A stretch of DNA of 64,000 nt, from positions 12,975 to 76,974 of the forward strand of contig JAIPJX010000008.1 in NCBI GenBank assembly GCA_021733945.1, in the 5' to 3' direction. The stretch is from Verrucomicrobiota bacterium (GTDB lineage Bacteria > Verrucomicrobiota > Verrucomicrobiia > Limisphaerales > SIBE01). The notes below the pieces were generated by a model, which was given only the letters and a program-made list of their open reading frames with translations, was not told the origin of the DNA and ran no database searches. A program made the position numbers and the translations under genes. Shown one piece after another: positions 32,604 to 55,633 of the stretch (position 1 is the first letter of the stretch; each line of letters begins with the position of its first letter).

Positions 32604-32611
32604 GGTTCGCT

Positions 32612-33274: not shown

Positions 33275-33314
33275 TCTGGCGGATGAGCGCACCCTCGATC
33301 ATGGGAAATTCCGT

Positions 33315-38134: not shown

Positions 38135-38196
38135 CCCTCTTCTAAGAGGGGATGGATGCCTGATGCATCCTTGCACCGGGGCGGCGAGCCCGCCCC
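38135..38196 (+). other. three adjacent stem-loops in a 372-nt non-coding gap
   Basis: CCCTCT-tcta-AGAGGG (38135-38150), GGATGC-ctgat-GCATCC (38154-38170), GGGGCGG-cgagc-CCGCCCC (38178-38196). None is followed by a T-run. Confidence 0.4.
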
Positions 38197-38296
38197 AATC
38201 GACGTGAGGGCGGAAGCAGTCGAAAACACGGAGGATTGGCATAACTCGATATTGCAGGCAGGTTTCCGAGATTGAGGCGCTTTGGGTTGATTAAGT

Positions 38297-39559
38297 ATGG
38301 AAAAGAATTCCCAGTTTTCGCATGGTCTGTTTACCGAGGTTGAGTGGGCGCAGACGCCAGAGGCGATTAGACGATTTGTTCAAGGATTGACGGATATGGC
38401 GAGGTTTTCCCAGATGGAAGCTGAAGTCTTTCGTCAGGAAGCCGTAAAAATGGCAACTGTTGCGTCGCGACGGAGTCGGGTTCCGGAGGAAGTGGTTTTC
38501 GTGGCCGATCGTCCCGGAATGAGGGTGAACAAGTTCGCATACGGTTTGAAACAGATCGGCTGGCGGGTGATCCTTCTGCACAGGGAGGCTCCAGATTTCG
38601 ATCCTTCCCAGCACTTTGTCGGTGTGCATCGGTACGCGAATCAATGGCAAGCGCTCGCAATCGCTTCGAGCTATTCCCCAGCGGCGTATCATTTGTTTTC
38701 AAGTTGGAATTTCGAGGTTGCCTCCACATTCATTCAGTGCAAACCAGGAAAAATTGTTTTTGAAACCTGGGACCTGGCGAATGGAATGCTCAAGGAAGAT
38801 TTTGCGGCCGGGATGAAAGAGGGCATAAAACTGGAACGGTTCTGTCTTGAAAATGCAGATGGAGTAAGTTGTCGCGGTTTGCATACTCAGTATTTGAAGC
38901 GAAACGAGGGATTCAAATTTCGGAAGAGGATCCTGTTTCCAGACTATTGCTGGGCAAAACCGAGGCAAGGAATGACTCAGGAAAAGATGTCGGACGGGAT
39001 CCACGCGGTTTATCTGGGCAATTTGCAGATGGACCCCAATCATCCTGCCGGCTTTACGTATCGTTTGGCGGAGCAGTTGAGCAGAAACGGAGTGCACTTT
39101 CACATTTATCCGTCCTTCCCGAATCAGGCGACTCAGCTCCGCACGGTCATGACCGAGTATTTCAAGGGAGCATCGGTTCCTGAACTTGTCCATATTCACG
39201 AGAAGGTTCCGTCTGACAGATTGACGGAGGAATTATCGAAATACCATTTTGGGATTTTTGTCTCGTCGCAGACAGAAGGTCTCCGGACTGACAACGATGC
39301 CTACCATCCGCGTTTCAATGAATACGTGACGGCGAACAAGGTGTTCGACTACATTGACGCAGGCCTGTTTGTGCTGGCCCAGAATGGGCGCTGGCTGCGG
39401 CGTGTCATCGGTCAGTATGGGAATGGGAAGACAGTGAAAACCATGGAGGATATTGTGCATCTTTGTAAAACCGAGCCGCTGAGGCACATTCCCGTTCCGA
39501 GGGGATATACCCTCCAGGCGAATGTGTCCCGTTTGGCGAGTTTTTATTCCTCTCTCTAG
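38297..39559 (+). CDS. hypothetical protein, possibly a GT-B-fold glycosyltransferase
   Basis: 420 aa, codon-plausible ORF. Rossmann-like VVFVADRPGMRVNKFAYGLKQIGWRVILLH. No canonical GT motif that I can name. Confidence 0.35.
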   Translation: MEKNSQFSHGLFTEVEWAQTPEAIRRFVQGLTDMARFSQMEAEVFRQEAVKMATVASRRSRVPEEVVFVADRPGMRVNKFAYGLKQIGWRVILLHREAPDFDPSQHFVGVHRYANQWQALAIASSYSPAAYHLFSSWNFEVASTFIQCKPGKIVFETWDLANGMLKEDFAAGMKEGIKLERFCLENADGVSCRGLHTQYLKRNEGFKFRKRILFPDYCWAKPRQGMTQEKMSDGIHAVYLGNLQMDPNHPAGFTYRLAEQLSRNGVHFHIYPSFPNQATQLRTVMTEYFKGASVPELVHIHEKVPSDRLTEELSKYHFGIFVSSQTEGLRTDNDAYHPRFNEYVTANKVFDYIDAGLFVLAQNGRWLRRVIGQYGNGKTVKTMEDIVHLCKTEPLRHIPVPRGYTLQANVSRLASFYSSL

Positions 39560-39772
39560 CGAAGCGGTTCGGTGTGATTCTGTTTTACAACGAAAGACGA
39601 ACGGGTTCCTCCAAAATGACCCAACCGGAGGGAAGAATCGGTTCGAATATCGGAGCAACTGGACCTCCTGCGAGCTCGATCCTCGATCGATTGGCGCTTC
39701 GGAAGCGTTGCCCCTCTCGCAAAGCGGTGGGGTCCGCCAGAAAAATGACTTAGGAACGAGTTACCGACGATC

Positions 39773-40855
39773 ATGAGCGAGAATACAGATTTGTTGATTC
39801 ACATTGGGCAACCCAAGACGGGTACGACGACGCTGCAGAGCTTTTTCAAGCTCAATGCAAGCTTTCTGAAAAAAAACGGAGTTTGTTTTCATCTCCTCGA
39901 TGAAAACCACGATCGCACCTATATCGAAGCGGCCCTGCGAAGGGAAATGTATGGAAAGGATGGGGTTGACCGGGTCACGGCGTTGATCTCGAAGATCGCA
40001 GCGCGAAGAGGTTGCACGCATGTGCTAAGCGACGAGGCTCTGTTCATTGCGCCGAGACTCGCTGGAACGGTTCGTGACATCGTCGCAGGGGTATCTCCGA
40101 CAATGTCTGTCAAAGTTGTCGTCTACCTGAGAAGGCAGGATCAGTGGTTGAGTTCGCTTCACGCAGCAAACATCAAAAACCCGCATGTGTATACGACCGA
40201 AGTGCACGGCCGGAGACTCAGTCAGATTCTGACCGACTTCGAGCTCTTTTCAATACCGGAGATTCCGCTGGACTACTATCATATCATTGAGGAATGGAGT
40301 CGCGCATTTGGGGCCGAGAATCTCATTGTCAGAGTGTACGAAAAGGAACAGCTGAACGGTGACATTATTGAGGATTTTCTGCGAAACGTTTTAAAATTAA
40401 CGCTGACCGGGGAATGTTCAGTGCCGGGGAACCAGAACATCAGCCTGCCTGAAGTCTGTACCGAAATCCTCCGGATCTGCAATGACAGCGGTTATTTTAA
40501 AAAAACAGAGGATATGCGTCAGAATCAGGAGCTTTTTGCGCGAATAGTCCTGCCGAGACACAGGGAAAGCCGAATATTTGATCTGACCCCTGTTCAGCGA
40601 CGAAGAATTCTCGAGAAGTGCGCCCAATCGAATGCAGCGATTGCGAGAAAGTACCTGCATCGGGATGACGGAATTTTGTTCCATGAGCCAGTTGGGGAAG
40701 CGCGTGATGCCAAGGGCAACTCGGAGCTGAAAATTGAGGACATTGTGCAGCCCCTTGTATTCGCGCTAGGGCAGCAGCGGAATGAGATCGAGGCGATCAA
40801 ACGGCAGTTGTTCGAAATCATAAGGTTTTTGCAGGCCCAGACACGAACTCCATGA
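39773..40855 (+). CDS. sulfotransferase-like protein
   Basis: 360 aa. 5'-PSB-like IHIGQPKTGTTTLQSFF and 3'-PB-like VVYLRRQDQWLSS. Confidence 0.5.
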   Translation: MSENTDLLIHIGQPKTGTTTLQSFFKLNASFLKKNGVCFHLLDENHDRTYIEAALRREMYGKDGVDRVTALISKIAARRGCTHVLSDEALFIAPRLAGTVRDIVAGVSPTMSVKVVVYLRRQDQWLSSLHAANIKNPHVYTTEVHGRRLSQILTDFELFSIPEIPLDYYHIIEEWSRAFGAENLIVRVYEKEQLNGDIIEDFLRNVLKLTLTGECSVPGNQNISLPEVCTEILRICNDSGYFKKTEDMRQNQELFARIVLPRHRESRIFDLTPVQRRRILEKCAQSNAAIARKYLHRDDGILFHEPVGEARDAKGNSELKIEDIVQPLVFALGQQRNEIEAIKRQLFEIIRFLQAQTRTP

Positions 40856-41048: not shown

Positions 41049-44000
41049 GTGAAAACACCAACAACGGACAACAAGCCAGCGATCTCCCGAATCGCTGGAA
41101 ACAAAGCGCCTCGCTTCAGCTTTGTGACGATCGTGCTCAATGGAATGCCATTTATCGAGCACGCACTCAAGGCCGTGTACGCATTCGCTCATGAGATTAT
41201 TGTAATCGAAGGGGCTGTTGAGAATTGTCAGTTCGCTGCAAATTCTGACGGTAGCTCGCGGGACGGAACCGTGGACTGCATACGGAATATGCCGGATCCA
41301 AGCGGCAAGATTCGGCTGCTGCAGGGTAAATGGCCGGAAAAATGCGAAATGCAGAATGCCGCTCTGGCGCATGTTACCGGCGATTACGTGTGGTTGATGG
41401 ATTCCGATGAAATATACCGGAGCGAAGATTTGGAAAAGATCCGCGAAATGATTCAAGCGGATCCTTCGATCACACAAGTGAATTTTATTCCGGACAATTT
41501 CTGGAGGGGGTTTGATTACATTTTTATTTCGTCCGAATTCTTCAAAGCTCCCCACCATTATCGAAGGTTGTTTCAATTCAAACCGGGAGCGCGGTTTTTG
41601 ACCCACCGTCCACCGACGATGCTTCTTCCTGGTGCGGACCGGTCTACCGAGCAAATGAAATGTGTGGGAGGTGATATTACTCGAGCGATGGGAGTGATTC
41701 CTTACCATTACAGTTATGTTCTCGAGAGTCAGGTGAAGCAGAAGATCGAACTTTACAATCGATACGGCTGGGGGGCGATGTGGGGCGTTGATATGAACCT
41801 TTGGTTGAATGAAGGGTTCCTTCAGTGGACCCCGGAGAATCGACGAGAGCTCGAGAAGAGGTATCCACCTTGGACAGGTGACAGGGGGTCCTTCACAGTT
41901 CCTTTCACAAAAGAACACCCGGAGGTGATGAAGGATTTTATTGCCGAATTTCGCGGCAAGGCTGAAAAGCGAACAGTTTTTCGAATACCGGATGAAGACT
42001 TGTTGATGCCTGTGATCGGAGACCCTTACTATTTGGAGAGGGTTCTGGAGGCCTGGAATCATATTGAATTGGACGCTCCTTTGCGGGGGCGTCAATCCAC
42101 CATTCGGAAGCATTTGACCAAAGGGACTTCCTTTTGGAACGTTCATGTGGGAATTGCGTTTCTTGCGAGCAGGCTCAAACCGCGGCGTTATCTCGAGATC
42201 GGTGTGCGGACTGGCGGGTCATTCGTTCAGGCCCTCTATAATGCTCCAATTGAGGAGGCAGTGGCAGTCGATATGTGGGCCGGCTCGTATTCGGGTCTCC
42301 CGAATACCAAGGATTATACGGTTTCTCAAATCGATCGGTTCCAAACGGAAGTGCGAAGGATTCCCGAGATAAAATATATTCACGGAAACAGTCATGTTGA
42401 GCTCAAGAAGCTGATTGAGGCGAAGTGCAGATTTGATCTGATCAATGTGGATGGGGACCATACGGAAGCTGGGGCGATTGAGGATTTGGAGGACGCTGTG
42501 CGACTTTTGAATCCTCGTGGCGCGATTGTGTTCGATGATGTGATCCATGTTTCGTTTCGCTTTCTTTTGGATGTAGCCAAACAGTTCGTCGAACGTCATC
42601 CTGAATTCACGCTCCTTTTAAATACCAGCCAGGATAACGGAACGGCCCTTTTTGTTCGTGGCCTGGCATTGGAGGAAATTCTTGCACCCCGGGAGGCGGT
42701 TCGGAAGCGCCCGAAGATTGCCGGCGAGGTGAAATCGGATCACGATCTGACCGCCGTTGGCAGCGAATCGGAGTTCAGCCGGAGTATTGGTCAACTCTTT
42801 GAGAAGATCAGGCCGCAGAAACTGATTGAAACCGGCACTTATTTGGGTACAGGAACCACCCGGACCATTGGGAATGCACTGAAGGAATTGGGGTGTGATG
42901 GCGCGGTCTTCTTTTCGATCGAAGTGAACCCGCGACATTTGAGCCAGGCATACGCCAATCTCGAGGCGGATGGATTGATGTCGAGGGTCCGGCTGTGCCA
43001 CGGTTTGTCAGTACCCCGTTCGATTCTGCCGAGTATTGAGGAGATTGAGGCGGCGACCGTAAGAAACATACAATCGGAGGAGATTTTTGTTGATCATCAG
43101 GAACATGAACGCGCGGCCCTTTATTACAGGGAAACGTGTTTTGAGGGGGTGCCTGATGATCTTTTGGGTAGATGCCTTGGGGAATTCAATTGCAGGCCTG
43201 ATTTTGTCATTCTTGACAGCGGAGGGCATTTGGGAAATGTGGAATTCAACTACCTGATCGAACGTCTTCAGGGCGAGTGTCATATCGCTTTGGATGACAT
43301 CTACCACATCAAACACAACCGAAGCTATTTGCAGATTCTGAATGATCCAAGATTCGAATTGGTTGTGTCTTCGAAGGAAAAGTTTGGGTTTTGCATTGCA
43401 AAATTCAGCCCCAAAGTCCAGGCGGAACCTAGGGTTCAGAGCGTGTTCTGGGTAAGACCCGATTCGATTGGGGACGCTGTTCTGTCGCTTTCTCAGCTTC
43501 CCTATATACGGGGCAAATACCCCGATGCCAGGATTGTCGTGTTGTGCCAGGAGCACGTCGCCGAGCTCTATGAGGCGAGTCCGTATGTGGACGCGATCGA
43601 GACGATCCGACAAGCGGACGCCCTCTCCAACAAGGAGTATCAAGCGCGTCTGGTTCAGCGAGTTCGAGCCGTTCAGGCTGATGTCTGCCTGAATCCGGTT
43701 TATTCCCGTGACCCGCTAAGCGATTTTCTTGCACTCAACTCGAACGCTCCGACCCGCGTTGCCTTTGAAGGGGGTGTTGAGAACATGATGCCCGAGGTGC
43801 GAGATCACCATAACCGACACTATACGAAACTGATTCCGAACAGGTCCAAATGGAAGGGTGAGTTGGAGAGGAATCGTGATTTTCTTCAGGGCATCGGAAT
43901 TGAGGTTTCCGAATTGGGTGCATTGATCTGGCTGAACAACGAAGATCTTGAATTTGCAGAGGATGTATTCAGAGCGAATCAACTGGATCCGAACAGAACG

Positions 44001-45227
44001 ATCGCCATGTTCGCGGGGGCTCAGCACGATTGCAGGCACTATTTGGGGTACGGAGAGGCGCTGAAGGAGATTTGCCGGGAGCGGGGTCTTGTCGTGGTCG
44101 GGTTGGGGGCGAAGCGGGATTTTGAAATAAACCAGAAGAATCTGGAAGCGACGGGTGCACCCGGGCTGAATCTTTCGGGCAAGATGACTCTGCGTCAAAA
44201 TGCTGCATTTCTCAAGAAATGCAGGCTGGCAGTGGGAGCGGAGACGGGACTGGCACACATTGCCTGTGCGGTCGAGGTGCCAAACGTGATACTTCTTGGT
44301 GGCGGGCATTTTGGAAGATTCATGCCGTATTCAGCGTTGACCTCGGTTGCGTGCCTTCCGCTGGAGTGCTTTGGCTGCAATTGGCAGTGCCGATTCTCTC
44401 GACCTCATTGTGTCAAGGATCTGCTGCCGGGAGTGATTGAGGCCGCGGTTCGGCGGACGCTGGATTCAAAATCGCAAAAGCCCAGGATCTTTGTGCAAGA
44501 CGATTCCATGCTGTCTCCCGGACCTGGCACTCCTGGATTGGGATCCTTCGATCAGCTCATTGATTCCGGCCGGGTCGAGGTGTTGATTGTAAATAGGGAA
44601 TCCGGTTCGGTTTGTTCAGGTAATTCCGGGATTCGGACTCGTGGAAATGAAGCTTCGATTCTGGAGCTGCTCCAGACTGCTGAAAGCCTCTATCGATCCG
44701 GAAAGACACAGGATGCGGTGGAGCATCTCAAACAGGCGAATTCGAATTACCCTGGTTCGGCTCAAATATTGGCGACTCTTTCGAATGTTCTTCTTCAAGC
44801 GGAAGATTTTGCCGGTGCTGAGCCTCGACTAAAAGAGTGGTTGAAGTTGCAGCCTCAAGATGCGAATGCATGGACCGGATTGGCTGTTGCGAAAAGCAGA
44901 CTTCAGGATCGTGAGGGATGCAAACAGGCGCTGAATCGGGTTCTTGAACTGGAACCTCGTAATCAGGGGGCTTTGCGATTGCTGGCGGACAATCTGCTGA
45001 TTGAAGGAGATTACCGGGCTGCAGGTGAGTTGTATGCGAAAATGCTCGAAGCGACGCCCGATGATCTCGATCTACTCGTGCGACGGGGCGTATGCCTTTT
45101 TAGGGCTCTGGAATACGACGCTGCGGCTTCATTTTTTGATCGTGTGCTCAAAATTGATCCGAATCATGGGTTGGCTACAGAGAATCGTGAAGCTGTCGAC
45201 CTGGCAAGGGCGATTCGTAAGGTATAG
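41049..45227 (+). CDS. multidomain GT2 - methyltransferase - methyltransferase-like - GT9 (heptosyltransferase-like) - TPR protein (1392 aa)
   Basis: GT2 (~41100-41950: FSFVTIVLNGMPFIEHAL..., LMDSDE). MT (~42130-42660: LEIGVRTGGS..., NVDGDH). Second Rossmann/MT-like domain (~42790-43410: LIETGTYLGTGTT). GT9 (~43430-44470: VFWVRPDSIGDAVLSL..., LSGKMTLRQNAAFLKKCRLAVGAETGLAHIA). TPR (~44660-45227). GTG start. Confidence 0.75.
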   Translation: MKTPTTDNKPAISRIAGNKAPRFSFVTIVLNGMPFIEHALKAVYAFAHEIIVIEGAVENCQFAANSDGSSRDGTVDCIRNMPDPSGKIRLLQGKWPEKCEMQNAALAHVTGDYVWLMDSDEIYRSEDLEKIREMIQADPSITQVNFIPDNFWRGFDYIFISSEFFKAPHHYRRLFQFKPGARFLTHRPPTMLLPGADRSTEQMKCVGGDITRAMGVIPYHYSYVLESQVKQKIELYNRYGWGAMWGVDMNLWLNEGFLQWTPENRRELEKRYPPWTGDRGSFTVPFTKEHPEVMKDFIAEFRGKAEKRTVFRIPDEDLLMPVIGDPYYLERVLEAWNHIELDAPLRGRQSTIRKHLTKGTSFWNVHVGIAFLASRLKPRRYLEIGVRTGGSFVQALYNAPIEEAVAVDMWAGSYSGLPNTKDYTVSQIDRFQTEVRRIPEIKYIHGNSHVELKKLIEAKCRFDLINVDGDHTEAGAIEDLEDAVRLLNPRGAIVFDDVIHVSFRFLLDVAKQFVERHPEFTLLLNTSQDNGTALFVRGLALEEILAPREAVRKRPKIAGEVKSDHDLTAVGSESEFSRSIGQLFEKIRPQKLIETGTYLGTGTTRTIGNALKELGCDGAVFFSIEVNPRHLSQAYANLEADGLMSRVRLCHGLSVPRSILPSIEEIEAATVRNIQSEEIFVDHQEHERAALYYRETCFEGVPDDLLGRCLGEFNCRPDFVILDSGGHLGNVEFNYLIERLQGECHIALDDIYHIKHNRSYLQILNDPRFELVVSSKEKFGFCIAKFSPKVQAEPRVQSVFWVRPDSIGDAVLSLSQLPYIRGKYPDARIVVLCQEHVAELYEASPYVDAIETIRQADALSNKEYQARLVQRVRAVQADVCLNPVYSRDPLSDFLALNSNAPTRVAFEGGVENMMPEVRDHHNRHYTKLIPNRSKWKGELERNRDFLQGIGIEVSELGALIWLNNEDLEFAEDVFRANQLDPNRTIAMFAGAQHDCRHYLGYGEALKEICRERGLVVVGLGAKRDFEINQKNLEATGAPGLNLSGKMTLRQNAAFLKKCRLAVGAETGLAHIACAVEVPNVILLGGGHFGRFMPYSALTSVACLPLECFGCNWQCRFSRPHCVKDLLPGVIEAAVRRTLDSKSQKPRIFVQDDSMLSPGPGTPGLGSFDQLIDSGRVEVLIVNRESGSVCSGNSGIRTRGNEASILELLQTAESLYRSGKTQDAVEHLKQANSNYPGSAQILATLSNVLLQAEDFAGAEPRLKEWLKLQPQDANAWTGLAVAKSRLQDREGCKQALNRVLELEPRNQGALRLLADNLLIEGDYRAAGELYAKMLEATPDDLDLLVRRGVCLFRALEYDAAASFFDRVLKIDPNHGLATENREAVDLARAIRKV

Positions 45228-45517
45228 TCTCTGGGTGCGACCGCCGCAGCCGAGTCATGCGATGTGCGAACGGGAACTCCGCCAGTCGGCGCATCCTGAG
45301 GTGGCCTAGAATCGTGATGGGATCCACCTCTTTCAACAATTCATTCGATGCTACTCGTGGAGCCGTGACATCCTTGTCCACCGAGGTTCGCGGGGCGGGC
45401 GGCAAAGTCGATGGTGGAAAACGGTGGGTATCTCCTTCCTGCGGAGTATCGCCTCCGGAAACGGGTGGTACGGGTTCCGGAAGCAGCAGGGGGATAGCAC
45501 AGCCGAGCTCGTTCGCT

Positions 45518-48500
45518 ATGGATAAAAAATGCCAGTCACGTGGCCCACTTGTTTCGGCCATTGTGTCGACGTACAATTCGGAGGGGTATCTTCGCGGGTG
45601 TTTAAGGGACTTGGTGGGGCAAACGCTTTTTGCCCAGGGGAAACTTGAGATTTTCGTAATCGACAGCGGGTCCCAGCAGAACGAAGGCAGGGTGGTTGAA
45701 GAGTTTCAGAGGCAGTTTCCGAGTATTCGTTATCTCCGAACGGAGCGGGAGCCGATCTACGCCGCCTGGAATCGCGCGATCCCCCTTCTGTCCGGCAAGT
45801 ACATCACGAATGCAAACACGGATGATGCCCATCGGGCGGATGCGCTGGAATTGCTCGCGGCGGCGTTGGACAGGTTTCCGGAGGCCGGGCTGGCGTACGG
45901 GGATTTTGTAAATTCATCGGTTCCAAACGATTCGTTTGACGACCCGCACGTTCTCCGCGAGGTGCGGTTTCCAGCCTATGAACCGAGCGATGTGCTTTTT
46001 TACTGCCCCATCGGGTGTCATCCGATGTGGCGGAGGGATGTGTTCGAGCAACTCGGAAATTTCGACCCCCGGCACTGGTCGGTGGGCGATTACGAATTTC
46101 TGCTGCGGTTTGTGGATGCCGGGATGATCGCTGTCCGTGTTCCGGAACTGCTGAGCCTCTTCTTTGAGAACCCGTCCGGAATCCAGTTCAAATCGGCCCA
46201 GGAGACCTACCAACAGTTTCTGAATGTAAGACACGAGTATCGCATCAAGATCCCGGTCGAAAAGATCTACGAAGCGGATCCGGCGGATCCTTCGGCGATT
46301 GCCAGAGCCTGGGTAGCTCTGGGGAACAAGGCGATGCATCATCGGATCCCGTGGTTTCCCAATCCGGCATCGGAGCTCCCGTATGCCGAGTTCTGTTACC
46401 GGCGGGCTCTCGAGGCATGTCCCTCCTTCATGCCGGCTCTCCGGAATTTGTGCGTGTTGTGGAGCTTGCAGAAGGAGGAAACGAAGGTTGCCGGGCTTTT
46501 GCTGAGATTGCCTTCCGGGACGGCTACGGAGGTTAAGAGTAAACTGGAGACCGAAGGGCTCAGGCTGGTTCATGTGGACGTCGTTCCGAAAGGTCAGACT
46601 CTGAAAGCGGAGGGATCCGAGCCCCACCCTTCCGCTCCGAAAGAGGTGGCGGCTCGACGAGCCGAAGTAATGGATGGGCAGAGCCCCGGGTTCAAGAATG
46701 CCCCGCAGAGTCGCGAACGGTTTCGGATTCTCCTGACCCTGGATGATCGAGGTGAGGGGCGGGTCGGCGCGTTCGGTCCCGGAGTTGTTGCGGAGGAACT
46801 CGTGCGACGGGGGCACGATGTCTCGGTGCTGTATGCCGCTGGCACCCATCCCTCGTCGCGGACTCCATACTTCCTCGAAGAAACAACGTCGCCGGGTGGG
46901 GTGCGCCTGTTTGGCGTGTACAACGGTCCCGTGACAGGGTGCGATCCTGAGAATCCGGATCGGGAAACGCTGGACCCGGAAATGATCCGGTGTTTCGGCG
47001 AGGTGATCGAGCGCTGCAAACCGGGCCTCGTGCATTTCCATACCTTCCAGGGATTGACTTTGGCGCTCGCCGCCGAGGCGAAACGGAAGGGGTTGGTGAC
47101 AATTTACAGCCCGCACAATTATCACCTGATCGATCCGGCGCTTTACCTGTTGGGGGCTGATCTCTCGGCGTGGACAGGGACGGATTTTTTCCGAAACTCG
47201 GAATGGGTGGCGCGTCGCCCCGACCTGCGCGGGGCCTACGCCCGACGTGCTGAAGCAGGCCGGGCGGTGTTGAACGAGCATTTGGATCTGACTCTTGCCG
47301 GTTCGTATCGTGCCCGCGACCTGTTTGAGGACTTCTGCGGTCGGCACGGCCGGATTGCCGTCGTTCACCAGGGTTACCCAGGTTCGGAGAGGGTGCCTGG
47401 CGAGGTTGGGGGCGAGTCGGGTCGGACGGGGCCGCTGAGAGTGGGGTTCCTGGGGCCGATCGTGCCTCGCGAAGGGCTGCATATTCTGGCCGCTGCCCTT
47501 CAGCGTGTATCCCCGGGCGGTGTGGAGGCCCATGTGTTTGGAGTGGTTGATGCCGCCTACAAGGAGCAGGTGATGGCGGTTGATGGGCGGCGGGTAATCC
47601 GTTGGCGGGGGGCCATCGAACCGGAGGCCCTGGGGGCAATCGCGAAGGAAACGGACTTGGTCGTGGTTCCAAGCCTCTGGGAAGCGGGAGCAGGGTCGGA
47701 GATTGTCGATGCATTGGCCATGGGGCGTCCGGTGGTCGCTGCGCGAATCGGGAGTGCGGCCGATTTTGTTGTTGATGGGTTTAACGGGCGCTTATACCGT
47801 AGTGATTCGATCGACGAATTGGCAGAAATCCTGGAGGAGCTGGTTCGCGACCGAGCTTTGGTTGAGCGGTTGAGCAGGAACTGTCGGCTGCCCCATGCGT
47901 TTGGAGACTATGTTGATCACGTTGTTTCGATTTATCACAGATTGCTCAAGGGCGAGCGAGTCCTTCCCGGAACCGCCTCCCTGGTTTTTCCGAGCTCTCC
48001 AACCAAGCCTCTTCCGCAGTCTGAGCCCGCAGGCGGGGGAGCCGCATCGGCTCCCGCCGATTTAGCTGAAGCCATGCACCACCCGCTCGACCTGCTGTTT
48101 GCCCGCGCTTCCTCCGATCTTGAATCTGGAAATTTGGCGGCTGCACGAAATGTTCTGATCGAAATCCTGGCACAGGCGCCGGACAGCTTCGAGGCCCGGG
48201 TCTCGCTCGGTTCGGTCCTGTTTCATCTGGAGGATTTTGAGGGGTCCTGGGTGCATTACGACCGGGCGCTGAGCCTCAAGAAGGACGATGCGGGCCTTTG
48301 TGTTCAGGCGGCCCTGGTGTGTCTCAAGCTTGGACGCATGAGTGACTTCGAACGGGTGATCGAACTAGCTCTGAAACTGGAGCCGGAGCATGTGGGCGCC
48401 CTGAAACTCCTGGGTGATCTCAACCTTCAGGAAGGGCGCTTTGCGGATGCTGGCCGGTGTTACTCCAGAATACTGAGCCGGGAACCCGGGAACTGCGATA

Positions 48501-51500
48501 TCCTGATTGCTTTGGGTGTGTCCTTCTTCAAGGGGGGGGACCCGGAGATGGCGAAGGCGGTTTTCGGGCAGGTGCTGGTGCGCGAACCGGAGCATGCTCT
48601 GGCAAAGGAGAATCTGGAGGTGATTCGACGGAGCATGGAGCAGGGGGCCGGCTCCGGCGCGCCTGTTCCTCAGGCGGCTCCTGAGGAGGTTGATTCCGCC
48701 GCGAAAGAAATTCTGGAGTTGATCGAGAGCGCCGATCGTCATTTTGAGGAGGGGCGGTACTTTGATGCGAAGGAACACCTGCTGAAGGTGCTTCAGCTGA
48801 GATCCGACGACATTCGGGCACTGACGTCGCTGGCCGCCGTGGCCGATGCCCTGGGCGATGTGGCTGGGTCCCGACATTATCTGCAGGAGGCTCTGCGGGT
48901 GAAGGGCGAGGATGCGGATCTTTATTTGCAGTGGGCTCTCGTGGAACTGAAGCAGGATGATGTTGAGCGGTTCGAGGAGTTGTTGGCCAAGGCCTTTGCA
49001 GTGGATCCCAAACATCACGCCTCTCTCAAGCTCCTTGCCGATCTGAATTTTCGGAGCGATCGCCTGAAGGCCGCAGCGGAGTCCTACACGACGATTCTGA
49101 CGCATTACCCCGACGATGTGGAGGCGATGGTTTCCCTGGGGGCCTGCTTCATGAACGATGGAGATTTGGAGACCGCGCGGATGGTGTTGACACGGGCGTT
49201 GGAGCTGGATGCGAGCTGCGCCAGTGCGAAGGAGCATCTCGAAACCATTGCCAGCCGGCTCGGCGACACGGGGGCCCGTCCCGGAGCGAGTGGTTCGGCC
49301 GTTGATTCGCAGGACGGGCCAAAAACTGCGCCGGAGACGATTCAACCAGCGGTTTCCAAAAAGAAGAACTCGGAGCGGGTCCAGGACCTGGTGGATGAAG
49401 CTGATTTTTTCAGCGAAGTGGGAAACCTGGAAGCATCGCTTGAGACCCTGGAACGGGCTTTGGAACTTGCGCCCCGGGACATGGGCCTGCTTTCGGCGGT
49501 GGGCAGCCTGCACTATACGATGGGGGACTACGAGGCTTCGCGCGCGAAGTTTCGGAACGTGATCGAATCCAGACCCCGGGATCCGGAGGCTTACACGAGA
49601 CTGGCCATGGCGTGCCTGCGGCTGGATCGGATCGAGGAGATGGAGGCGGCCCTGGGCATTGCGTTGGAGATTGATCCGGAAAACCGGGAGGCGCTCAAGT
49701 TTCTTGCGAAAACAAATCTGGAGGCGGAGCGGGTCCGGGACGCCGGGCGCGCCTATGCAAAACTTCTGGAGGAGCAGCCCGATGACATGGAATCGCTCCT
49801 GGCGCTGGGGTTGTGTTTCTTCAAGGGCGGGGATCTTCCGGCAGCGCGCATGGTGTACGGCCGGGTGTTGGAGTATGACGCGGAAAATCCGACGGCTGTT
49901 GAGAATTTGGCCCAGATCGACGCCAGGGAGAATCGTTCAACCCCAAAAAGAGGGAAGTCCGAAGCAGAGGAAGCCAGGGAACGTTCCGGGAAGGTGAATG
50001 AATTGATGGCTGCGGCCGAGGGGGCGTTCAAGGCCAAGAACCTGCCAGCCGCGAGGGATGCGTTGAAGAATGCCGTTGAGCTGGCTCCCAATGCGATCGA
50101 ACTCCTGGCTGCGTTGGGAAGCCTCCATTTTCAACTGGACGAAATGCCCGAGGCGCGCGAGGTGTTGTGCCGATTGGTGGAGCTGGCTCCGGCGGAACCC
50201 GCCAAATGGGTTCAGCTGGCTTTGACGCACTATCAGCTGAACGAGATTGAGGACTTCGAGAAGGCGCTGAAACGGGCTCTGGAATTGGATCCGGATCATT
50301 TCGAGGCGTTGCGCTTGTTGGCGCACATGAGTTTCAAGCATGGAAACTTCCGGGACGCAGCGCAGACGTATGGTCGCATCCTGAAGCGGGCTCCGAACGA
50401 CGTGGAGATTCTGTCTGCCTTGGGAGTTTGCTTTTTCAAGGGCGGGGACATGGATGCCGCCGGCATGATGTTTGAGAAGGTTCTCGAAGTGGAGCCCGGA
50501 AACGCGATCGCGACCGAAAACCTGAGCGTCATCGAAAACCGGAGTGCAGGCAATTCCGCAGGAGCGTTGCCGAGTGTTTCGAATCCCGGGAATGAGGGGG
50601 AAGGTGGCGCTTCCGACGAACCTGCATCGAAGCGCATGGAAAGGGTCGATGAGTTGCTCGTGGATGCGGACAGGTGCGCCACCAGCGGGGATGTTTCCGG
50701 CGCGTGTGATCGGTTGAGGAAGGCGTGCGAACTTGAGCCCGAAACCCATGAGATTCATGCTGCCCTGGGCAGCTTGCTCTACCAGCTTGGGCAGTGGGAC
50801 GCGGGGGTCGCGTCGCTCAAGCGCGCCACGCAACTGGCTCCGAATTCCGCCGATTACCACACGCGGCTCGCGATCAGCCTTCTGTCCGTGGATAGCGTCG
50901 GCGAGTTTGAAGAAGCCCTGCAAAAGGCCCTGACCCTTGATCCCAGCCACCGGCCGGCTCTGCGGTTGCTGGCGGATCTGAATCTTCGCGGAGGTAATTT
51001 CAAGGACGCGGCACACACCTATCACCGGTTGCTTTTGCAGACACCCGATGATGTGGATGTCATGCTTCCGATGGCGGTGTGTTTCTACAAGAACGGGGAT
51101 CCGCAGGCTGCGCGAATGGTTTTCAACCGGATCCTGACACTCGATCCCGAGCACGCCATCGCGCGTGAGAATCGGGATTTGCTGGATCGTGAGGAAGCGG
51201 GTTCGGGTGCTGCAGGCGCTACATCCGGGGGAAGTGTCCCGACCGTGGCACCGGCCTCTGTGGCTGTGCCGGCGGTTGGAAAGGTTTCGGTGCTCTGGGA
51301 GGGATCCCAGTTTGTTCATCATTCACTGGCGCTCGTGAATCGTGAGCTCTGTTTCCAGTTGCTGCAGATGGGCCATGACGTTTCGATCCTCCCTTACGAA
51401 CCGGACCAATTCGGGGCGGAGATGGATCCGCGATTTGTGCGGCTGGCGGGGGCGGTCCGGGCGCCCCTTTCAAAAGCGCCTGAAATCCACCTGCGCCATC

Positions 51501-54500
51501 AGTGGCCTTTCAATCCGGTTCCTCCCAAGGAGGGGCGATGGGTGGTGATCCAGCCCTGGGAATATGGGATGCTTCCCAAGGAATGGCTTCCGGTTCTCAG
51601 GGAGCAGGTCGACGAAATCTGGACCTATAGCAATTTTGTTCGGGATACCTACATTCGATCCGGAGTCCCTGCTGAGAAGGTTTTTGTGGTTCCGTGTGGG
51701 GTGGATCCGGACCGGTTTCATCCCGGAGCATCTCCGGCGAAGCTTGCCACGCAGAAGAAGTATAAGTTCCTGTTCGTGGGTGGTTTGATTCATCGCAAGG
51801 GAATCGACCTGTTGCTCAACACCTACATGAACCGGTTCCGGGCCAGTGATGATGTTTGTCTGGTCATCAAGGCATTCGGCAGCGGGTGGTATCGGGACGA
51901 CAAGGTGAGGGCTCAGATTAAAAAGATTCAACAGACGCCCGGCAGTCCGGAGATCCTGCTTTTGGATCGGGACATGGAGCCCGCTGAGTTGCCGGGTCTG
52001 TACACTACGTGCGATTGTCTGGTGCATCCCTATCGTGGGGAAGGCTTCGGGTTGCCCGTGCTTGAGGCGATGGCGTGCGAATTGCCGGTGATTGTGACCG
52101 GGGGCGGATCGACGGATGATTTTGCCACCGACGAACTGGCCAGCCGGGTGGCTGCGGTTCGAAAGAATTTGGGAACCCGGGTCATGGACCTGGAGCTGGC
52201 GGGTGAGGGCTGGTTGTTGGAACCCGACCCGGCCGACCTGGGTGAGCGCATGACCTGGATGGTGAATCATCCGGATGAAGCCGCGGCAATGGCGCGGCGG
52301 GCCAGTGAGGTGGCACGCACCAAATGGTCCTGGGCTGCGGGGGCGGCCAGGGCGGAGGCGCGACTCAGGGCCTTATCCAAATGCAATGAGCTGCCGATGC
52401 GGTTCACCTCGCAACCTGGGCAAAGCGCGTCCGGGCAGAACCCTGGGACGGTGGTCGAAAAAGAAGTGGGTGATCAACGGTCGTTGGGTAAAGAGCCGGG
52501 ATCCGCATCGGCCGGGAACGGGGTTGATGTTGTGTGGGAGGGACCCCAGTTCAGCCATCATTCTCTGGCACTGATCAATCGCGAGGTTTGTCTCAGTTTG
52601 ATCGCGGGCGGAACTGCGGTCAGGGTGCAGTCCGTCGGGGACAAGGTGTTTGGCCCCGAGGCGGACCCGAGGTTTCAGGAACTCGAGAAGCGCATGAATG
52701 GAGTCGGGCCTTCGGCCTCGGCGTTGCGGGTGCGCCATCAGTGGCCCATGAATCTTGAGCCGCCCCTCGACGGACCCTGGATCGTCATGCAGCCTTGGGA
52801 ATTCGGGGCGATTCCGAGGGATTGGCTCGAGCCAATGCAACACCGGGTTGATGAGATTTGGGCGTATACGGAATTTGTGCGGCAGACCTACATCCAATGC
52901 GGGGTGCCGCCGGAGAAGGTGTTTGTCATCCCGTGCGGAGTGCACCCGGGGAAATTTCATCCCGAGGTAACCCGGGCGAACCTGGCGACTCGCAAGAAAT
53001 TCAAGTTCCTTTTTGTGGGCGGCACGATTCTGAGGAAGGGGCCCGATGTCCTGTTGAACGCCTACCTTCGCACATTCACTGCGCAGGACGATGTCTGTCT
53101 GGTGATCAAGGATTTTGGAGGCAGGGATGTGTACAAGGGGCAGACGATCGAACGATCGATTCGTGAGGCGCAGGCGAGGTCCGGGGCACCGGAGATCCTT
53201 CATCTGACCGAGGACATGACGCCCGACGAGTTGCCGGGACTTTACGCGGCCTGCGATTGTCTGGTGCATCCGTACCGGGGGGAGGGCTTCGGGTTGCCGG
53301 TGTTGGAGGCCATGGCCGTGGGACTGCCTGTTATTGTGACTGAGGGTGGGTCCACGGACGATTTTGCGCCAGCCAACGTTGCCTACCGAATTCCTTCAAA
53401 ATCGGTCGAAGTACCCAACTGGGCTGGTCCGGAACTGGTCGGGAGCCCGACTTGGCTGGAGCCCGATCAGGGTGTGTTGGAGCAAGTCATGCGTGCTGTG
53501 TTTCAGGATCCTGAAGCCGGACGCAGGATGGGGCGGGCTGCGAGTGCCCATGTTCACCAATCGTGGACCTGGGATTGCGCCGCGACCCGGGTTTTGGAAC
53601 GTCTGAAGAGCCTCGCGAGCCGGACGGAACTGCCCGTTCGGTTCCAGGGCCAGGGCATGATTCCGCCGTCCCTGATTCCCGGGGGAAACGCCGAAATTAA
53701 GGTTCCTGCGGCGGGAGAGGTCGGGTCTCTCGAGAAGGTGCACGCGTTGGTTGAGAAAAGGAAATTTCTGAAAGCGTGGAACGCGACACTGGACGCGATT
53801 CGGCAGCGGCCCTTTCATCCGGACGCCTACTTGCAGATGGTGGATATTGCGTTGCGTGCGGAGGATATCCGCCAGGCTCTTGCCTGTGCGGAGCGATTGA
53901 TCCGAATGACACCCAACTGGACGACCGCACGGCGGATCCACGATTCCCTCAAGAAGGAACGTAAACCGAAGAAATCCAAAGTCAGGTGGACGCCTCTTCC
54001 CAAGCCGGGCGCGCGTCCGAGCCTGAGCGTCTGCCTGATTGTCCGGAATGAGGAGGAACACATCGGGCGCTGCCTGGCATCGGTCAAGGACATAGCGACG
54101 CAGATCGTGGTGGTGGACACCGGATCGAGCGACCGGACGGTGGCGATTGCGAAGGAGTACGGGGCCGAAGTTTATCATTTTGAATGGAACGACGATTTCA
54201 GTGACGCTCGGAACGAGGGACACCGGCATGCGCGCGGGGATTGGGTCCTGATTCTGGATGCGGACGAAGAGTTGCCGGTCGAAAGCCATAAACAGCTCCT
54301 GGAGGACATGGCTGTGGAAAATGTGCTCGGGTACCGGATTCCGATCTGCAACATTCATGAAGCCGATGACTCCGTGACCTATGTCCCGCGCCTGTTCCGA
54401 AACGCGCCGGCGCTCTTTTTTGTGGGTCGGGTGCACGAGCAGATTTACGCGAGCGTGATCGCACGGAAGTCGGAGTGGAACATGGAAGCGGTTCTGGGTA

Positions 54501-55633
54501 CGGCCAGAATCAATCATTACGGATACGATCCGGGCCTGGTGAAGCGTCGGCAGAAGGTCCGGCGAAACCTTCGGCTGCTCGAGCGTGCGATTCAGGAGAT
54601 GCCGAACGAGGCGGCGCTCGTGATGAATTACGGTCTGGATCTTGTGAATGACGGTCGGCTCGAGGAGGGGCTTGTCCAGTATCGCAACGCGGTCCGTATC
54701 ATGGAGCCGCACAAACCGGATGCCATTCTTCCCGAGGTGCGTGAGCGCCTCCTGACAATCTTCGGGGTGCATCTGCTGAGAGCCGACCGATTCGAAGAAG
54801 TCGTGCAGGTGATGACTTCACGACTTGCCAATGACTGCGGTCCAACGGCCTCGCTGCACTTTCTGGCCGCTGCCGGATTGATGAAGCTGGACCGGCCTGC
54901 GGAGGCGATTCCCCATCTTCAGGCGTGCCTGGCCAAGCGCGGGCAACCCACGCTCACGCCCCCTTGCAAGCAGGTGTTCCGCGGTGGTCCCAGGCATTTG
55001 CTTGCGGAATGTTTTTGCAGGACCAAGCAGGTTGCAGAGGCTGAGGAGGCCTTCAAGGAAGGACTCAAGGAGGATCCGGATTCGGTGGGGCTCCTGCGTG
55101 ATTACGCCTATTTTCTGCATAAAAGTGAACGATCCCTGGAGGCAATGCAGGTGTTGCATCAATTTCTGGGCTCCGGGGTCGACGATGAGCATATCTGGCA
55201 TTTGGGATGTCTGATTTCAAACAGTCGACCCGAGTTCGCCGAGTTCGCCTCCGATTGGACGGCGGAAGCCATCAAGTTTCATCCTGAACATCCGGGGATT
55301 GTGCGGGCCCGGGGGGAAGCGTTGCTGAAAGCGGGTGAACTCCGGGAATCGGTGCCGTTTTTCAAAAAGGCACCGCATCGGGAGGAGTCGGACGCTCTGG
55401 CCGCCGTGGTTCTCGCGGAGTTGGGCGCAGGGGATCCGGTGTCCGGAGTGGGATCTGCGAACGAAGCCGATGTCAGCCGGGAGTTCATCGCCTGGTACCG
55501 CCGTCTCCTGGCCACCAAAGCGCAGAAAGCCGTCCGTGCGATCAACGGAAAACTGGAAATTCTTGCGGGGGTTTTGCCGACTGCGAGCCGGATGCTGAAG
55601 CAGGCACTGGAGGAAGCCGGTTCGCCTGAGTGA
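45518..55633 (+). CDS. giant multi-glycosyltransferase/TPR protein (3371 aa from ATG 45518; 3458 aa from track start 45257)
   Basis: One uninterrupted frame. In order: GT2 (~45545-46200), GT4-like (~46720-47950), 5 TPR super-modules (~48070-51200), two paralogous GT4 domains (~51280-52400 and ~52520-53650), a short TPR stretch, GT2 (~54010-54600), helical/TPR tail. The first 87 codons of the track ORF are R/G/S-rich and look non-coding. Confidence 0.8.
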   Translation: MDKKCQSRGPLVSAIVSTYNSEGYLRGCLRDLVGQTLFAQGKLEIFVIDSGSQQNEGRVVEEFQRQFPSIRYLRTEREPIYAAWNRAIPLLSGKYITNANTDDAHRADALELLAAALDRFPEAGLAYGDFVNSSVPNDSFDDPHVLREVRFPAYEPSDVLFYCPIGCHPMWRRDVFEQLGNFDPRHWSVGDYEFLLRFVDAGMIAVRVPELLSLFFENPSGIQFKSAQETYQQFLNVRHEYRIKIPVEKIYEADPADPSAIARAWVALGNKAMHHRIPWFPNPASELPYAEFCYRRALEACPSFMPALRNLCVLWSLQKEETKVAGLLLRLPSGTATEVKSKLETEGLRLVHVDVVPKGQTLKAEGSEPHPSAPKEVAARRAEVMDGQSPGFKNAPQSRERFRILLTLDDRGEGRVGAFGPGVVAEELVRRGHDVSVLYAAGTHPSSRTPYFLEETTSPGGVRLFGVYNGPVTGCDPENPDRETLDPEMIRCFGEVIERCKPGLVHFHTFQGLTLALAAEAKRKGLVTIYSPHNYHLIDPALYLLGADLSAWTGTDFFRNSEWVARRPDLRGAYARRAEAGRAVLNEHLDLTLAGSYRARDLFEDFCGRHGRIAVVHQGYPGSERVPGEVGGESGRTGPLRVGFLGPIVPREGLHILAAALQRVSPGGVEAHVFGVVDAAYKEQVMAVDGRRVIRWRGAIEPEALGAIAKETDLVVVPSLWEAGAGSEIVDALAMGRPVVAARIGSAADFVVDGFNGRLYRSDSIDELAEILEELVRDRALVERLSRNCRLPHAFGDYVDHVVSIYHRLLKGERVLPGTASLVFPSSPTKPLPQSEPAGGGAASAPADLAEAMHHPLDLLFARASSDLESGNLAAARNVLIEILAQAPDSFEARVSLGSVLFHLEDFEGSWVHYDRALSLKKDDAGLCVQAALVCLKLGRMSDFERVIELALKLEPEHVGALKLLGDLNLQEGRFADAGRCYSRILSREPGNCDILIALGVSFFKGGDPEMAKAVFGQVLVREPEHALAKENLEVIRRSMEQGAGSGAPVPQAAPEEVDSAAKEILELIESADRHFEEGRYFDAKEHLLKVLQLRSDDIRALTSLAAVADALGDVAGSRHYLQEALRVKGEDADLYLQWALVELKQDDVERFEELLAKAFAVDPKHHASLKLLADLNFRSDRLKAAAESYTTILTHYPDDVEAMVSLGACFMNDGDLETARMVLTRALELDASCASAKEHLETIASRLGDTGARPGASGSAVDSQDGPKTAPETIQPAVSKKKNSERVQDLVDEADFFSEVGNLEASLETLERALELAPRDMGLLSAVGSLHYTMGDYEASRAKFRNVIESRPRDPEAYTRLAMACLRLDRIEEMEAALGIALEIDPENREALKFLAKTNLEAERVRDAGRAYAKLLEEQPDDMESLLALGLCFFKGGDLPAARMVYGRVLEYDAENPTAVENLAQIDARENRSTPKRGKSEAEEARERSGKVNELMAAAEGAFKAKNLPAARDALKNAVELAPNAIELLAALGSLHFQLDEMPEAREVLCRLVELAPAEPAKWVQLALTHYQLNEIEDFEKALKRALELDPDHFEALRLLAHMSFKHGNFRDAAQTYGRILKRAPNDVEILSALGVCFFKGGDMDAAGMMFEKVLEVEPGNAIATENLSVIENRSAGNSAGALPSVSNPGNEGEGGASDEPASKRMERVDELLVDADRCATSGDVSGACDRLRKACELEPETHEIHAALGSLLYQLGQWDAGVASLKRATQLAPNSADYHTRLAISLLSVDSVGEFEEALQKALTLDPSHRPALRLLADLNLRGGNFKDAAHTYHRLLLQTPDDVDVMLPMAVCFYKNGDPQAARMVFNRILTLDPEHAIARENRDLLDREEAGSGAAGATSGGSVPTVAPASVAVPAVGKVSVLWEGSQFVHHSLALVNRELCFQLLQMGHDVSILPYEPDQFGAEMDPRFVRLAGAVRAPLSKAPEIHLRHQWPFNPVPPKEGRWVVIQPWEYGMLPKEWLPVLREQVDEIWTYSNFVRDTYIRSGVPAEKVFVVPCGVDPDRFHPGASPAKLATQKKYKFLFVGGLIHRKGIDLLLNTYMNRFRASDDVCLVIKAFGSGWYRDDKVRAQIKKIQQTPGSPEILLLDRDMEPAELPGLYTTCDCLVHPYRGEGFGLPVLEAMACELPVIVTGGGSTDDFATDELASRVAAVRKNLGTRVMDLELAGEGWLLEPDPADLGERMTWMVNHPDEAAAMARRASEVARTKWSWAAGAARAEARLRALSKCNELPMRFTSQPGQSASGQNPGTVVEKEVGDQRSLGKEPGSASAGNGVDVVWEGPQFSHHSLALINREVCLSLIAGGTAVRVQSVGDKVFGPEADPRFQELEKRMNGVGPSASALRVRHQWPMNLEPPLDGPWIVMQPWEFGAIPRDWLEPMQHRVDEIWAYTEFVRQTYIQCGVPPEKVFVIPCGVHPGKFHPEVTRANLATRKKFKFLFVGGTILRKGPDVLLNAYLRTFTAQDDVCLVIKDFGGRDVYKGQTIERSIREAQARSGAPEILHLTEDMTPDELPGLYAACDCLVHPYRGEGFGLPVLEAMAVGLPVIVTEGGSTDDFAPANVAYRIPSKSVEVPNWAGPELVGSPTWLEPDQGVLEQVMRAVFQDPEAGRRMGRAASAHVHQSWTWDCAATRVLERLKSLASRTELPVRFQGQGMIPPSLIPGGNAEIKVPAAGEVGSLEKVHALVEKRKFLKAWNATLDAIRQRPFHPDAYLQMVDIALRAEDIRQALACAERLIRMTPNWTTARRIHDSLKKERKPKKSKVRWTPLPKPGARPSLSVCLIVRNEEEHIGRCLASVKDIATQIVVVDTGSSDRTVAIAKEYGAEVYHFEWNDDFSDARNEGHRHARGDWVLILDADEELPVESHKQLLEDMAVENVLGYRIPICNIHEADDSVTYVPRLFRNAPALFFVGRVHEQIYASVIARKSEWNMEAVLGTARINHYGYDPGLVKRRQKVRRNLRLLERAIQEMPNEAALVMNYGLDLVNDGRLEEGLVQYRNAVRIMEPHKPDAILPEVRERLLTIFGVHLLRADRFEEVVQVMTSRLANDCGPTASLHFLAAAGLMKLDRPAEAIPHLQACLAKRGQPTLTPPCKQVFRGGPRHLLAECFCRTKQVAEAEEAFKEGLKEDPDSVGLLRDYAYFLHKSERSLEAMQVLHQFLGSGVDDEHIWHLGCLISNSRPEFAEFASDWTAEAIKFHPEHPGIVRARGEALLKAGELRESVPFFKKAPHREESDALAAVVLAELGAGDPVSGVGSANEADVSREFIAWYRRLLATKAQKAVRAINGKLEILAGVLPTASRMLKQALEEAGSPE
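48070..51200 (+). repeat. five tandem ~213-aa TPR super-modules (protein-level repeat) inside the giant ORF
   Basis: The landmark CFFKGGD (variants CFMNDGD, CFYKNGD) recurs at 48524, ~49148, 49817, 50432 and ~51082 (period 615-670 nt). Each module ends ...A.EN(L/R).... Confidence 0.8.
51280..53650 (+). repeat. tandem duplication of a ~400-aa GT4 domain inside the giant ORF
   Basis: VLWEGSQFVHHSLALVNRELC... versus VVWEGPQFSHHSLALINREVC... Both contain CDCLVHPYRGEGFGLPVLEAMA. The DNA around 52021 versus 53261 is ~80% identical by eye. Confidence 0.85.

Follow-up and report, generated by a model that had tools for sequence, protein, structure and literature searches.

A giant five-glycosyltransferase protein from a flagellar locus of a Verrucomicrobiota bacterium: a probable GmaR-type flagellin glycosyltransferase

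The locus described here raises the question of what a bacterium might do with a protein in which five glycosyltransferase (GT) domains and a long array of tetratricopeptide repeats (TPR) share one reading frame among flagellar genes, and of whether such a fusion is real. The gene lies in a 64,000-nucleotide stretch of DNA (hereafter the window; GenBank assembly GCA_021733945.1, contig JAIPJX010000008.1, positions 12,975 to 76,974), where a listing of open reading frames (ORFs) together with a stop-free translation placed it on the forward strand at 45257..55633, with a product of 3458 amino acids (aa) from the first ATG. The fusion is genuine and not an assembly artefact. The product is read here, with a probability of about 0.65 for the mechanism as a whole, as a GmaR-type flagellin O-glycosyltransferase that is soluble, cytoplasmic and multi-catalytic.

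Domain architecture and the C-terminal module

The order of domains in the giant protein was GT2, GT4, five modules of five TPRs each, GT4, GT4, a short TPR stretch, GT2 and a helical, TPR-containing tail, and every domain named in the first-pass annotation of this DNA was recovered by a Pfam scan run on separate in-frame segments of the ORF. Thus, the N-terminal GT2 (GT-A fold; 45545..46156, approximately aa 97-300), which carries SpsA-like motifs (VIDSGS ... NTDD), matched PF00535 at approximately aa 100-226, and the first GT4 (GT-B fold; 46787..47884) matched over both lobes (PF13439 and PF00534/PF13692) at approximately aa 511-876. TPR families followed at approximately aa 940-2000, the five super-modules occupying 48077-48706, 48707-49366, 49367-49981, 49982-50641 and 50642-51211 (whole array 48077..51211). 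The array is followed by GT4a (51263..52414, aa 2003-2386; Pfam match approximately aa 2072-2365) and its paralog GT4b (52502..53653, aa 2416-2799; Pfam match approximately aa 2513-2780), by a short TPR stretch of six helices (53696..54001, aa 2814-2915), by the C-terminal GmaR/SunS-like GT2 (54002..54661, aa 2916-3135; Pfam match aa 2924-3035) and by an all-helical tail (54662..55630, aa 3136-3458; TPR match approximately aa 3190-3320), all on the forward strand. GT2 and GT4 were the only GT families indicated by Pfam, no GT41 catalytic domain being found in the giant protein, and PF01973 (MAF_flag10/MptE-like) was absent from the protein, its segments and the other ORFs scanned in the window. 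No credible transmembrane segment was seen in the giant protein or in the megaprotein encoded upstream of it, the single hydrophobic window of the former lying inside the GT4b catalytic motif, and the giant protein was shown, as far as its sequence can tell, to be soluble.

The last 645 aa (aa 2814-3458) were conserved as one evolutionary unit, within which the short TPR stretch always preceded the C-terminal GT2. In a phmmer search of PDB, the best solved-structure match of this GT2 was the GT domain of GmaR (22ao_A, E 4.9e-32, query residues 104-300), which rose to E 2.7e-44 with a 30-sequence family profile; the glycocin S-glycosyltransferases SunS (9e-30) and ThuS (3e-23) came next. In agreement with the first-pass annotation, in which the last ~650 aa had been likened to a stand-alone flagellin glycosyltransferase with TPRs, GmaR was the closest in sequence among solved structures, and stand-alone forms of approximately 630-700 aa were found to exist. 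The best NCBIfam match of the same domain was the SunS family TIGR04195. Membership in that family was rejected; the fold is common to both, but the score of 74.5 bits is far under the cut-off of 350. Across 30 relatives the motifs DTGSxD (D2954...D2959) and DADE (3001-3004) were invariant, and HE was also among the family-invariant residues.

An AlphaFold2 model of aa 2814-3458 (predicted local distance difference test score, pLDDT, 91.6; predicted template-modelling score 0.82) consisted of six helices, a GT-A domain and approximately 20 further helices, and was all-helical past residue ~286 with pLDDT above 90, so that a TPR/helical region lies directly C-terminal to the GT2. Foldseek searches with the model returned ThuS and SunS first (E 1e-14 to 1e-12), the fold matched being a GT-A domain plus a helical substrate-binding domain, and then the TPRs of OGT, which were also matched by the short TPR stretch in a profile search. 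Judged by such similarities, only the C-terminal GT2 belongs to the class of GTs that modify proteins or peptides, whereas the N-terminal GT2 (matches: chondroitin synthase, GalT1 and SpsA) and the three GT4 domains (matches: PimA/PimB, MshA, TarM and sucrose-phosphate-synthase-like proteins) match generic sugar-elongating enzymes. Close homologs of the N-terminal GT2, found in a search with the N-terminal 843 aa, frequently carried a TPR, methyltransferase or Maf (PF01973) domain in the same protein.

The five TPR super-modules and two paralogous GT4 domains noted in the first pass were both recovered by tile-BLAST, which placed the module starts near aa 951, 1159, 1387, 1587 and 1810 (period 200-228 aa, identity between copies 30-48%) and found GT4a and GT4b to be approximately 55% identical at an offset of 413 aa. 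The canonical EX7E motif was intact in both GT4 copies (E2262-E2270 in GT4a, HPYRGEGFGLPVLEAMA; E2676-E2684 in GT4b). Self-BLAST of the whole protein gave the identity match only, the repeats emerging from tile-BLAST, and Tandem Repeats Finder detected no DNA-level repeats in the gene, which argues that the TPR and GT4 repeats are old duplications and not the product of collapsed or duplicated assembly. An AlphaFold2 model of module 4 comprised 11 helices (five TPRs and a cap, approximately 190 aa, pLDDT above 95) and ended in approximately 28 disordered residues, a Gly/Ser/Ala/Pro-rich linker. Because of this linker, the array is best read, on the modelled structure, as five beads on a flexible string and not as one superhelix. 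The modelled bead superposed on the TPRs of OGT (template-modelling score 0.77-0.78, root-mean-square deviation 1.7-2.0 Å) and on MamA.

Integrity of the reading frame and the family of related proteins

A stop-free run of 3458 codons has a chance probability of about 1e-54 given the base composition of the ORF itself, and the G+C contents at first, second and third codon positions (approximately 0.67/0.44/0.69 per 200-codon block) were coding-like across the gene. The uninterrupted single frame reported in the first pass was thus upheld by both translation and codon periodicity. The sole departure from this periodicity was in aa 1-87 (0.51/0.69/0.60), and similarity of the protein to its relatives set in at approximately aa 97. 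A probable alternative start at ATG 45518 (M88) gives a product of 3371 aa and is as good as M1, for a size range of 3371-3458 aa, with which the length of 10.1-10.4 kb given earlier agrees depending on the start. Composition was rejected as decisive for M88 as the true start because aa 1-87 are Gly/Ser/Pro-rich. A public gene call that opens at GTG 45563 (P0121, 3356 aa) was also rejected as a separate relative, being the window's own protein from a later start, and was left out of counts. Long antisense ORFs within the gene (e.g., 45914..47533) are shadow ORFs of a GC-rich coding region. The sole homopolymer of at least 7 bases in the ORF was a G8 run at 48532-48539, on both sides of which the frame was conserved with the 5089-aa ortholog described below.

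That the single frame is an artefact of chimeric short-read assembly or of a missed frameshift, the locus really holding several genes or a pseudogene, is highly improbable. The window does come from a short-read metagenome contig (Logan SRR12088351, 66.8 kb), on which the gene was called as one 3458-aa product, and its closest syntenic relative (L002; GCA_016209525.1, JACQWK010000151) was called as two ORFs. However, a second, independent assembly (ENA ERZ24794644, 37.8-kb contig) has the same domain order in one ORF. The product of this positional ortholog (P0122, 5089 aa) aligned over its aa 1618-5085 with aa 71-3455 of the giant protein in a single collinear high-scoring segment pair of 3,495 columns (56.8% identity), and its gene is followed by flgL, flgK, flgN, a rod-binding protein gene, flgI, flgH, flgA, flgG, flgF and fliS. 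The N-terminus of P0122 adds four more GT domains, and eight GT domains were recognisable in the 5,089-aa protein. The TPR array is likewise fused to the family core (defined below) in P0123 (3199 aa; GT2, six TPR modules, GT4, core) and in P0006, a protein of 2308 aa encoded in full on its contig (six TPR modules, GT4, core). Moreover, the gene holds no DNA-level repeats to mis-assemble, and its codon periodicity is uniform.

The exception, L002, encodes the TPR array and the GT4-GT4-GT2-tail portion in two overlapping ORFs in different frames, and the frame changes precisely at an A10 run (~4620-4632) in an otherwise GC-rich gene. With A11 the sequence reads ...PQAKKKTIAAKASSDRSLSVVWEGSQF... 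in one fused frame, so the split amounts to a one-base homopolymer difference. Possible causes are misassembly, a frameshift of recent origin, or a slippage or phase-variable tract by which the scaffold would switch between being fused and being separate; at the giant-gene locus, fusion is the usual condition.

An exhaustive phmmer search with the last 645 aa against 1.84 billion representatives (50%-identity clusters) gave 38,749 matches at E<=1e-3 and at least 2,963 50%-identity clusters at E<=1e-30; a further homolog search used the TPR-poor C-terminal half. The module was C-terminal in essentially all of the best 150 representatives, in host proteins that spanned the range from the module alone to 5,089 aa, and 16 other representatives among the best 150 exceeded 3,000 aa. 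Thus, the uniqueness that the first-pass annotation implied for a fusion of so many GT domains did not hold: the giant protein is one member of a large multi-GT family and not a one-off, the module defining thousands of sequence clusters, mostly from Verrucomicrobiota.

Domain maps of 90 plus 27 relatives indicated a near-universal core made up of a GT4 of the b type (the GT4 copy present in nearly every member), a TPR stretch of approximately 100 aa, the GT2 and the tail. The N-terminal additions varied, with one to four GT4 copies, GT2 domains of the N-terminal type, TPR super-modules and S-adenosylmethionine (SAM) or FkbM methyltransferases, as well as GT29 sialyltransferase-like and HAD domains in precomputed Pfam assignments. 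Fusions of five GT domains (four GT4 and one GT2, 2,200-2,300 aa) were common. Named sources were almost all metagenome-assembled genomes of Verrucomicrobiota (e.g., Pedosphaera, Limisphaerales, Lacunisphaera). The giant protein has the full ~640-aa module at its C-terminus, preceded by a GT4 of the b type, and, together with its two or three closest relatives, it is set apart by the array of five or six TPR beads plus the extra N-terminal GT2-GT4.

Flagellar context and proposed function

The flagellar setting implied in the first pass was borne out on both sides of the giant gene. The 5' part of the window holds fliF, fliG, fliH, fliI, fliJ, two ORFs without assignment, flgD and a hook/rod-family gene of the flgE/F/G type, then fliL, fliM, fliP, fliR, flhB, flhA, flhF, fliW and two flagellin genes. 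From 23.8 kb to 55.6 kb runs a co-directional series of genes that ends with the giant gene, and beyond it the opposite strand carries flgL, flgK, flgN, flgI, flgH, flgA and rod genes. A pattern scan of genome contigs, which was a sample and not a census, listed at least 6 full-length loci and at least 74 relatives with the GT2 only. Among 15 loci examined that had the full core module, 9 had flagellar genes within 10 kb. Thus, flgL was adjacent in one (P0001/L002); a flagellin, a Maf-like protein and NeuB were encoded upstream and che genes downstream in another (P0011/L003); the family gene lay between two flagellin genes, with fliW, csrA, fliD and fliS close by (P0046/L004), directly behind two flagellin genes (P0035/L005) or beside fliD and fliS (P0002/L008); and P0122/L089, L011, L012 and L013 were also flagellar loci. 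For random genes, a rough guess from the size of the flagellar regulon, uncomputed, puts the expected adjacency at a few per cent. Among the matches listed for the more distant GT2-only relatives, 17 of 74 were flagellin-adjacent, in Gemmatimonadota, Acidobacteriota, Bacteroidota/Ignavibacteria, Desulfobacterota, Actinomycetota and Bacillota. The L013 contig (CAYQWK010000125.1), in which the full core module adjoins fliW and flagellin, is labelled 'uncultured Bifidobacteriaceae'; it looks verrucomicrobial and was probably mis-binned.

With GmaR homology and flagellar context in agreement, the assignment of the giant protein as a flagellin glycosyltransferase is well supported and, on these two grounds, quite probable. 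We infer that the acceptor is flagellin, that the C-terminal GT2 primes the glycan and that the TPRs provide docking sites. In the proposed mechanism, the C-terminal module (short TPR stretch, inverting GT2 and helical tail) would bind flagellin before export through its flanking TPR/helical parts, and its GT2 would attach the first sugar to flagellin Ser/Thr. Extension of that sugar would then fall to the remaining four GT domains (the GT2 at the N-terminus and the three GT4), with help from the 1392-aa protein encoded directly upstream, which would also methylate the glycan; as donors, the adjacent 17-kb gene cluster would supply unusual activated sugars. The five flexibly linked beads would dock or adapt, holding flagellin or partner proteins near the catalytic domains. 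Docking by TPRs is proposed because of precedents in other systems. The TPR-containing N-terminal domain of FlmG is necessary and sufficient for binding of flagellin, its substrates being short flagellins (PMC7591256); the C-terminal TPR of Shewanella Maf-1 binds flagellin, and related systems consist of fused or split enzyme and adaptor (bioRxiv 10.1101/2023.12.03.569772); and for GmaR, which acts on short flagellin in the cytoplasm, a flagellin-binding role of the TPR has been proposed (PMC9638930).

Several observations weigh against this assignment. No flagellar gene was noted within 10 kb at 6 of the 15 loci (P0020, P0105, P0006, L009, L010 and L014), although short contigs account for two or three of these and the NeuB/thiamine-pyrophosphate-enzyme sugar cluster at P0020 is one that adjoins flagellin at the P0011 locus. 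GmaR-like proteins with GT2 and TPR also occur in non-flagellated cyanobacteria, so this type of GT2 is not specific to flagellin. The tail gave no match to GmaR residues 141-637 (TPR, linker and antirepressor region) at E<=0.01 or with a profile, MogR itself not being searched. No NCBIfam equivalog passed its cut-off for any segment of the giant protein, which therefore has no curated name. Lastly, the first GT4 has E-X8-D (WEAGAGSEIVDA) at the EX7E position, which renders its activity less certain, and this domain may be inactive.

The missing flagellar neighbours and the cyanobacterial relatives are what could be expected if the acceptor were something other than flagellin, such as a hook-associated protein, a pilin or an S-layer protein, or else a glycan that is soluble or part of the cell envelope; a cyanobacterial TPR-glycosyltransferase homologue is reported to be needed for pilin glycosylation (PMC9306852). 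An acceptor of this kind is nevertheless improbable, since the giant protein has no transmembrane segments, since the scanned ORFs of the window included none of the Wzx/Wzy, polyprenyl-phosphate glycosyltransferase or oligosaccharyltransferase families, since direct adjacency to flagellin recurs in independent lineages and since the closest homolog of known structure has been proven to glycosylate flagellin.

If flagellin is the acceptor, the GT domains might still act in parallel on different sites or different flagellins, or some might be dead scaffolds, with the TPR beads serving oligomerisation or partner binding, so that no assembly line would exist. The variant motif in the first GT4 is consistent with such a scheme, as are the two flagellin paralogs of the window, the free variation of GT4 copy number from 1 to 4 in the family and the distinct serines targeted by Maf-1 and Maf-2 in Shewanella (bioRxiv 10.1101/2023.12.03.569772). 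We consider it unlikely, however, because the GTs other than the C-terminal one best match GT2 and GT4 enzymes with sugar or lipid acceptors and because the adjacent cluster makes several different tailored sugars, which fits an oligosaccharide. Serial assembly of the glycan in cis by the GT domains of the giant protein stands at about even odds.

TPR beads were common to both megaproteins of the window and were sometimes separately encoded. A more tentative proposal is that of a cytoplasmic, protein-templated glycan assembly line, in which the flagellin glycan would be set by the number, type and order of the fused domains (GT, methyltransferase and GT29) that precede an invariant GmaR-like primer, while detachable strings of 5-TPR beads would hold flagellin, possibly in several copies or as a complex of flagellin and chaperone. 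If so, shuffling of domains together with fusion and fission at linker homopolymers, such as the A10 tract of L002, would allow fast diversification or on/off switching of flagellar surface chemistry. The serial model, if true, would amount to a natural modular system that builds defined oligosaccharides on protein in the cytoplasm, with a bearing on how glycan structure is encoded, on flagellar surface diversification in environmental bacteria and on glyco-engineering, since heterologous hosts have already been used to reconstitute FlmG and Maf. The occurrence of the TPR array in both fused and separate form offers a clean test case for the role of TPRs in substrate selection.

Comparison with known enzymes indicated partial likeness in each case. 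GmaR, the flagellin O-GlcNAc transferase and MogR antirepressor of Listeria monocytogenes, has an N-terminal GT2 followed by TPR and further helical repeats, keeps the DxD and, at 637 aa, is close in size to the stand-alone family members of ~640 aa. In contrast with the giant protein, in which the module ends a protein with four more GTs and five TPR modules, GmaR is an enzyme of one catalytic domain that attaches a single GlcNAc, and it lacks the extra three-TPR stretch before the GT2. The giant protein was ruled out as an ortholog of GmaR since it has no similarity to the antirepressor region, and regulation of the MogR type is not expected outside Listeria. FlmG, the pseudaminyl/legionaminyl transferase of Caulobacter and Brevundimonas, resembles the giant protein in architecture (architecture, not sequence, was compared), its TPRs being N-terminal to a GT-B domain as the TPR arrays precede GT4 here; unlike the giant protein it is 596 aa long with one GT domain, and it transfers nonulosonic acid, for which the window shows no NeuB/Pse pathway. 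The fused or split TPR adaptor of Maf-1 parallels the fused or split array of the giant family, and some N-terminal-GT2 homologs of the giant protein are fused to PF01973, but the giant protein itself lacks this domain and is thus no Maf.

SunS and ThuS share the succession of GT-A and helical/TPR-like peptide-binding domain but are S-glycosyltransferases that act on small ribosomal peptides in systems with no flagellar link. In OGT (GT41) and SPINDLY, a long TPR superhelix likewise hands protein substrates to a glycosyltransferase; in OGT, however, that superhelix is continuous, as opposed to the five discrete 5-repeat units of the giant protein, and the GT41 domain has no counterpart here. 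To our knowledge, the flagellin glycosyltransferases described so far (GmaR, FlmG, Maf) have a single catalytic domain, and the assembly of longer flagellar glycans is shared among several separate proteins. A literature search that covered few subscription journals found no paper on the family of the giant protein or on such multi-domain flagellin glycosyltransferases, nor any on flagellin glycosylation in Verrucomicrobia. Thus, neither the enzyme classes nor the TPR logic is new, while a large modular family in which a GmaR-like primer is fused to four to seven additional GTs and strings of TPR beads appears to be undescribed.

Neighbouring genes of the window

The gene directly upstream of the giant gene (41049..45227, forward strand) encodes the 1392-aa megaprotein, which consists of a GT2, a methyltransferase (PF13578), a GT9 heptosyltransferase-like domain and TPRs. 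It ends (aa 1206-1384) in one TPR super-module of the giant type (28-34% identity over the full module, E 7e-29), and the upstream gene at the P0122 locus (L089 1-2040) ends with the same super-module. The methyltransferase is of class 24. Downstream, flgL (55718-56653) and flgK (56704-58140) lie on the reverse strand, convergent with the giant gene, and the same neighbours recur in both syntenic relatives.

The presumed substrates are encoded by two short flagellin genes (21971..23636, forward strand; 270 and 272 aa, 22-23% Ser+Thr), with fliW (21173-21625) directly upstream. Both flagellins are minimal, without outer domains, and belong to the short type on which GmaR and FlmG also act.

A co-directional cluster for sugar synthesis and tailoring (23814..40855, forward strand, approximately 17 kb) follows the flagellins. 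Its first gene (23814-24353, forward strand), directly after them, encodes an RfaH/UpxY-like NusG paralog (TIGR01955, 79 bits, under the cut-off of 144), a candidate operon-specific antiterminator for a very long transcript of the ~32-kb glycosylation cluster that would include the 10-kb giant gene. The enzymes of the cluster include an HldE-like kinase/nucleotidyltransferase, 4,6-dehydratase-like and epimerase-type enzymes, a split transketolase (27118-28880, forward strand), an alcohol dehydrogenase, a phosphotransferase, an RmlD-like reductase, a short-chain dehydrogenase/reductase and several methyltransferases, two of them sugar C-methyltransferases (33189-35734, forward strand). The pathway at 24322-37924 (forward strand) suggests a branched or C-methylated deoxy-heptose or deoxy-hexose, and the GT9 domain of the 1392-aa protein fits the HldE-like heptose activation gene. 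The domain order of the HldE-like enzyme is reversed. NeuB/Pse genes were absent from the cluster of the window, unlike the loci of some relatives.

Two ORFs of no confident family precede the megaproteins on the forward strand. One (38297-39559, 420 aa) had a weak precomputed match to Gtf3_C, and the other (39773-40855) encodes 360 aa. Gtf3 extends O-glycans on serine-rich-repeat adhesins. The two ORFs without assignment in the 5' part of the window are likewise on the forward strand. The smaller (6927-7655, 242 aa) matched FlbB, a collar protein of periplasmic flagella, weakly and under the cut-off (4.5e-10). The larger (7660-10683, 1007 aa), which had no Pfam or NCBIfam match, lies between fliJ and flgD, the usual place of the gene for the hook-length regulator FliK.

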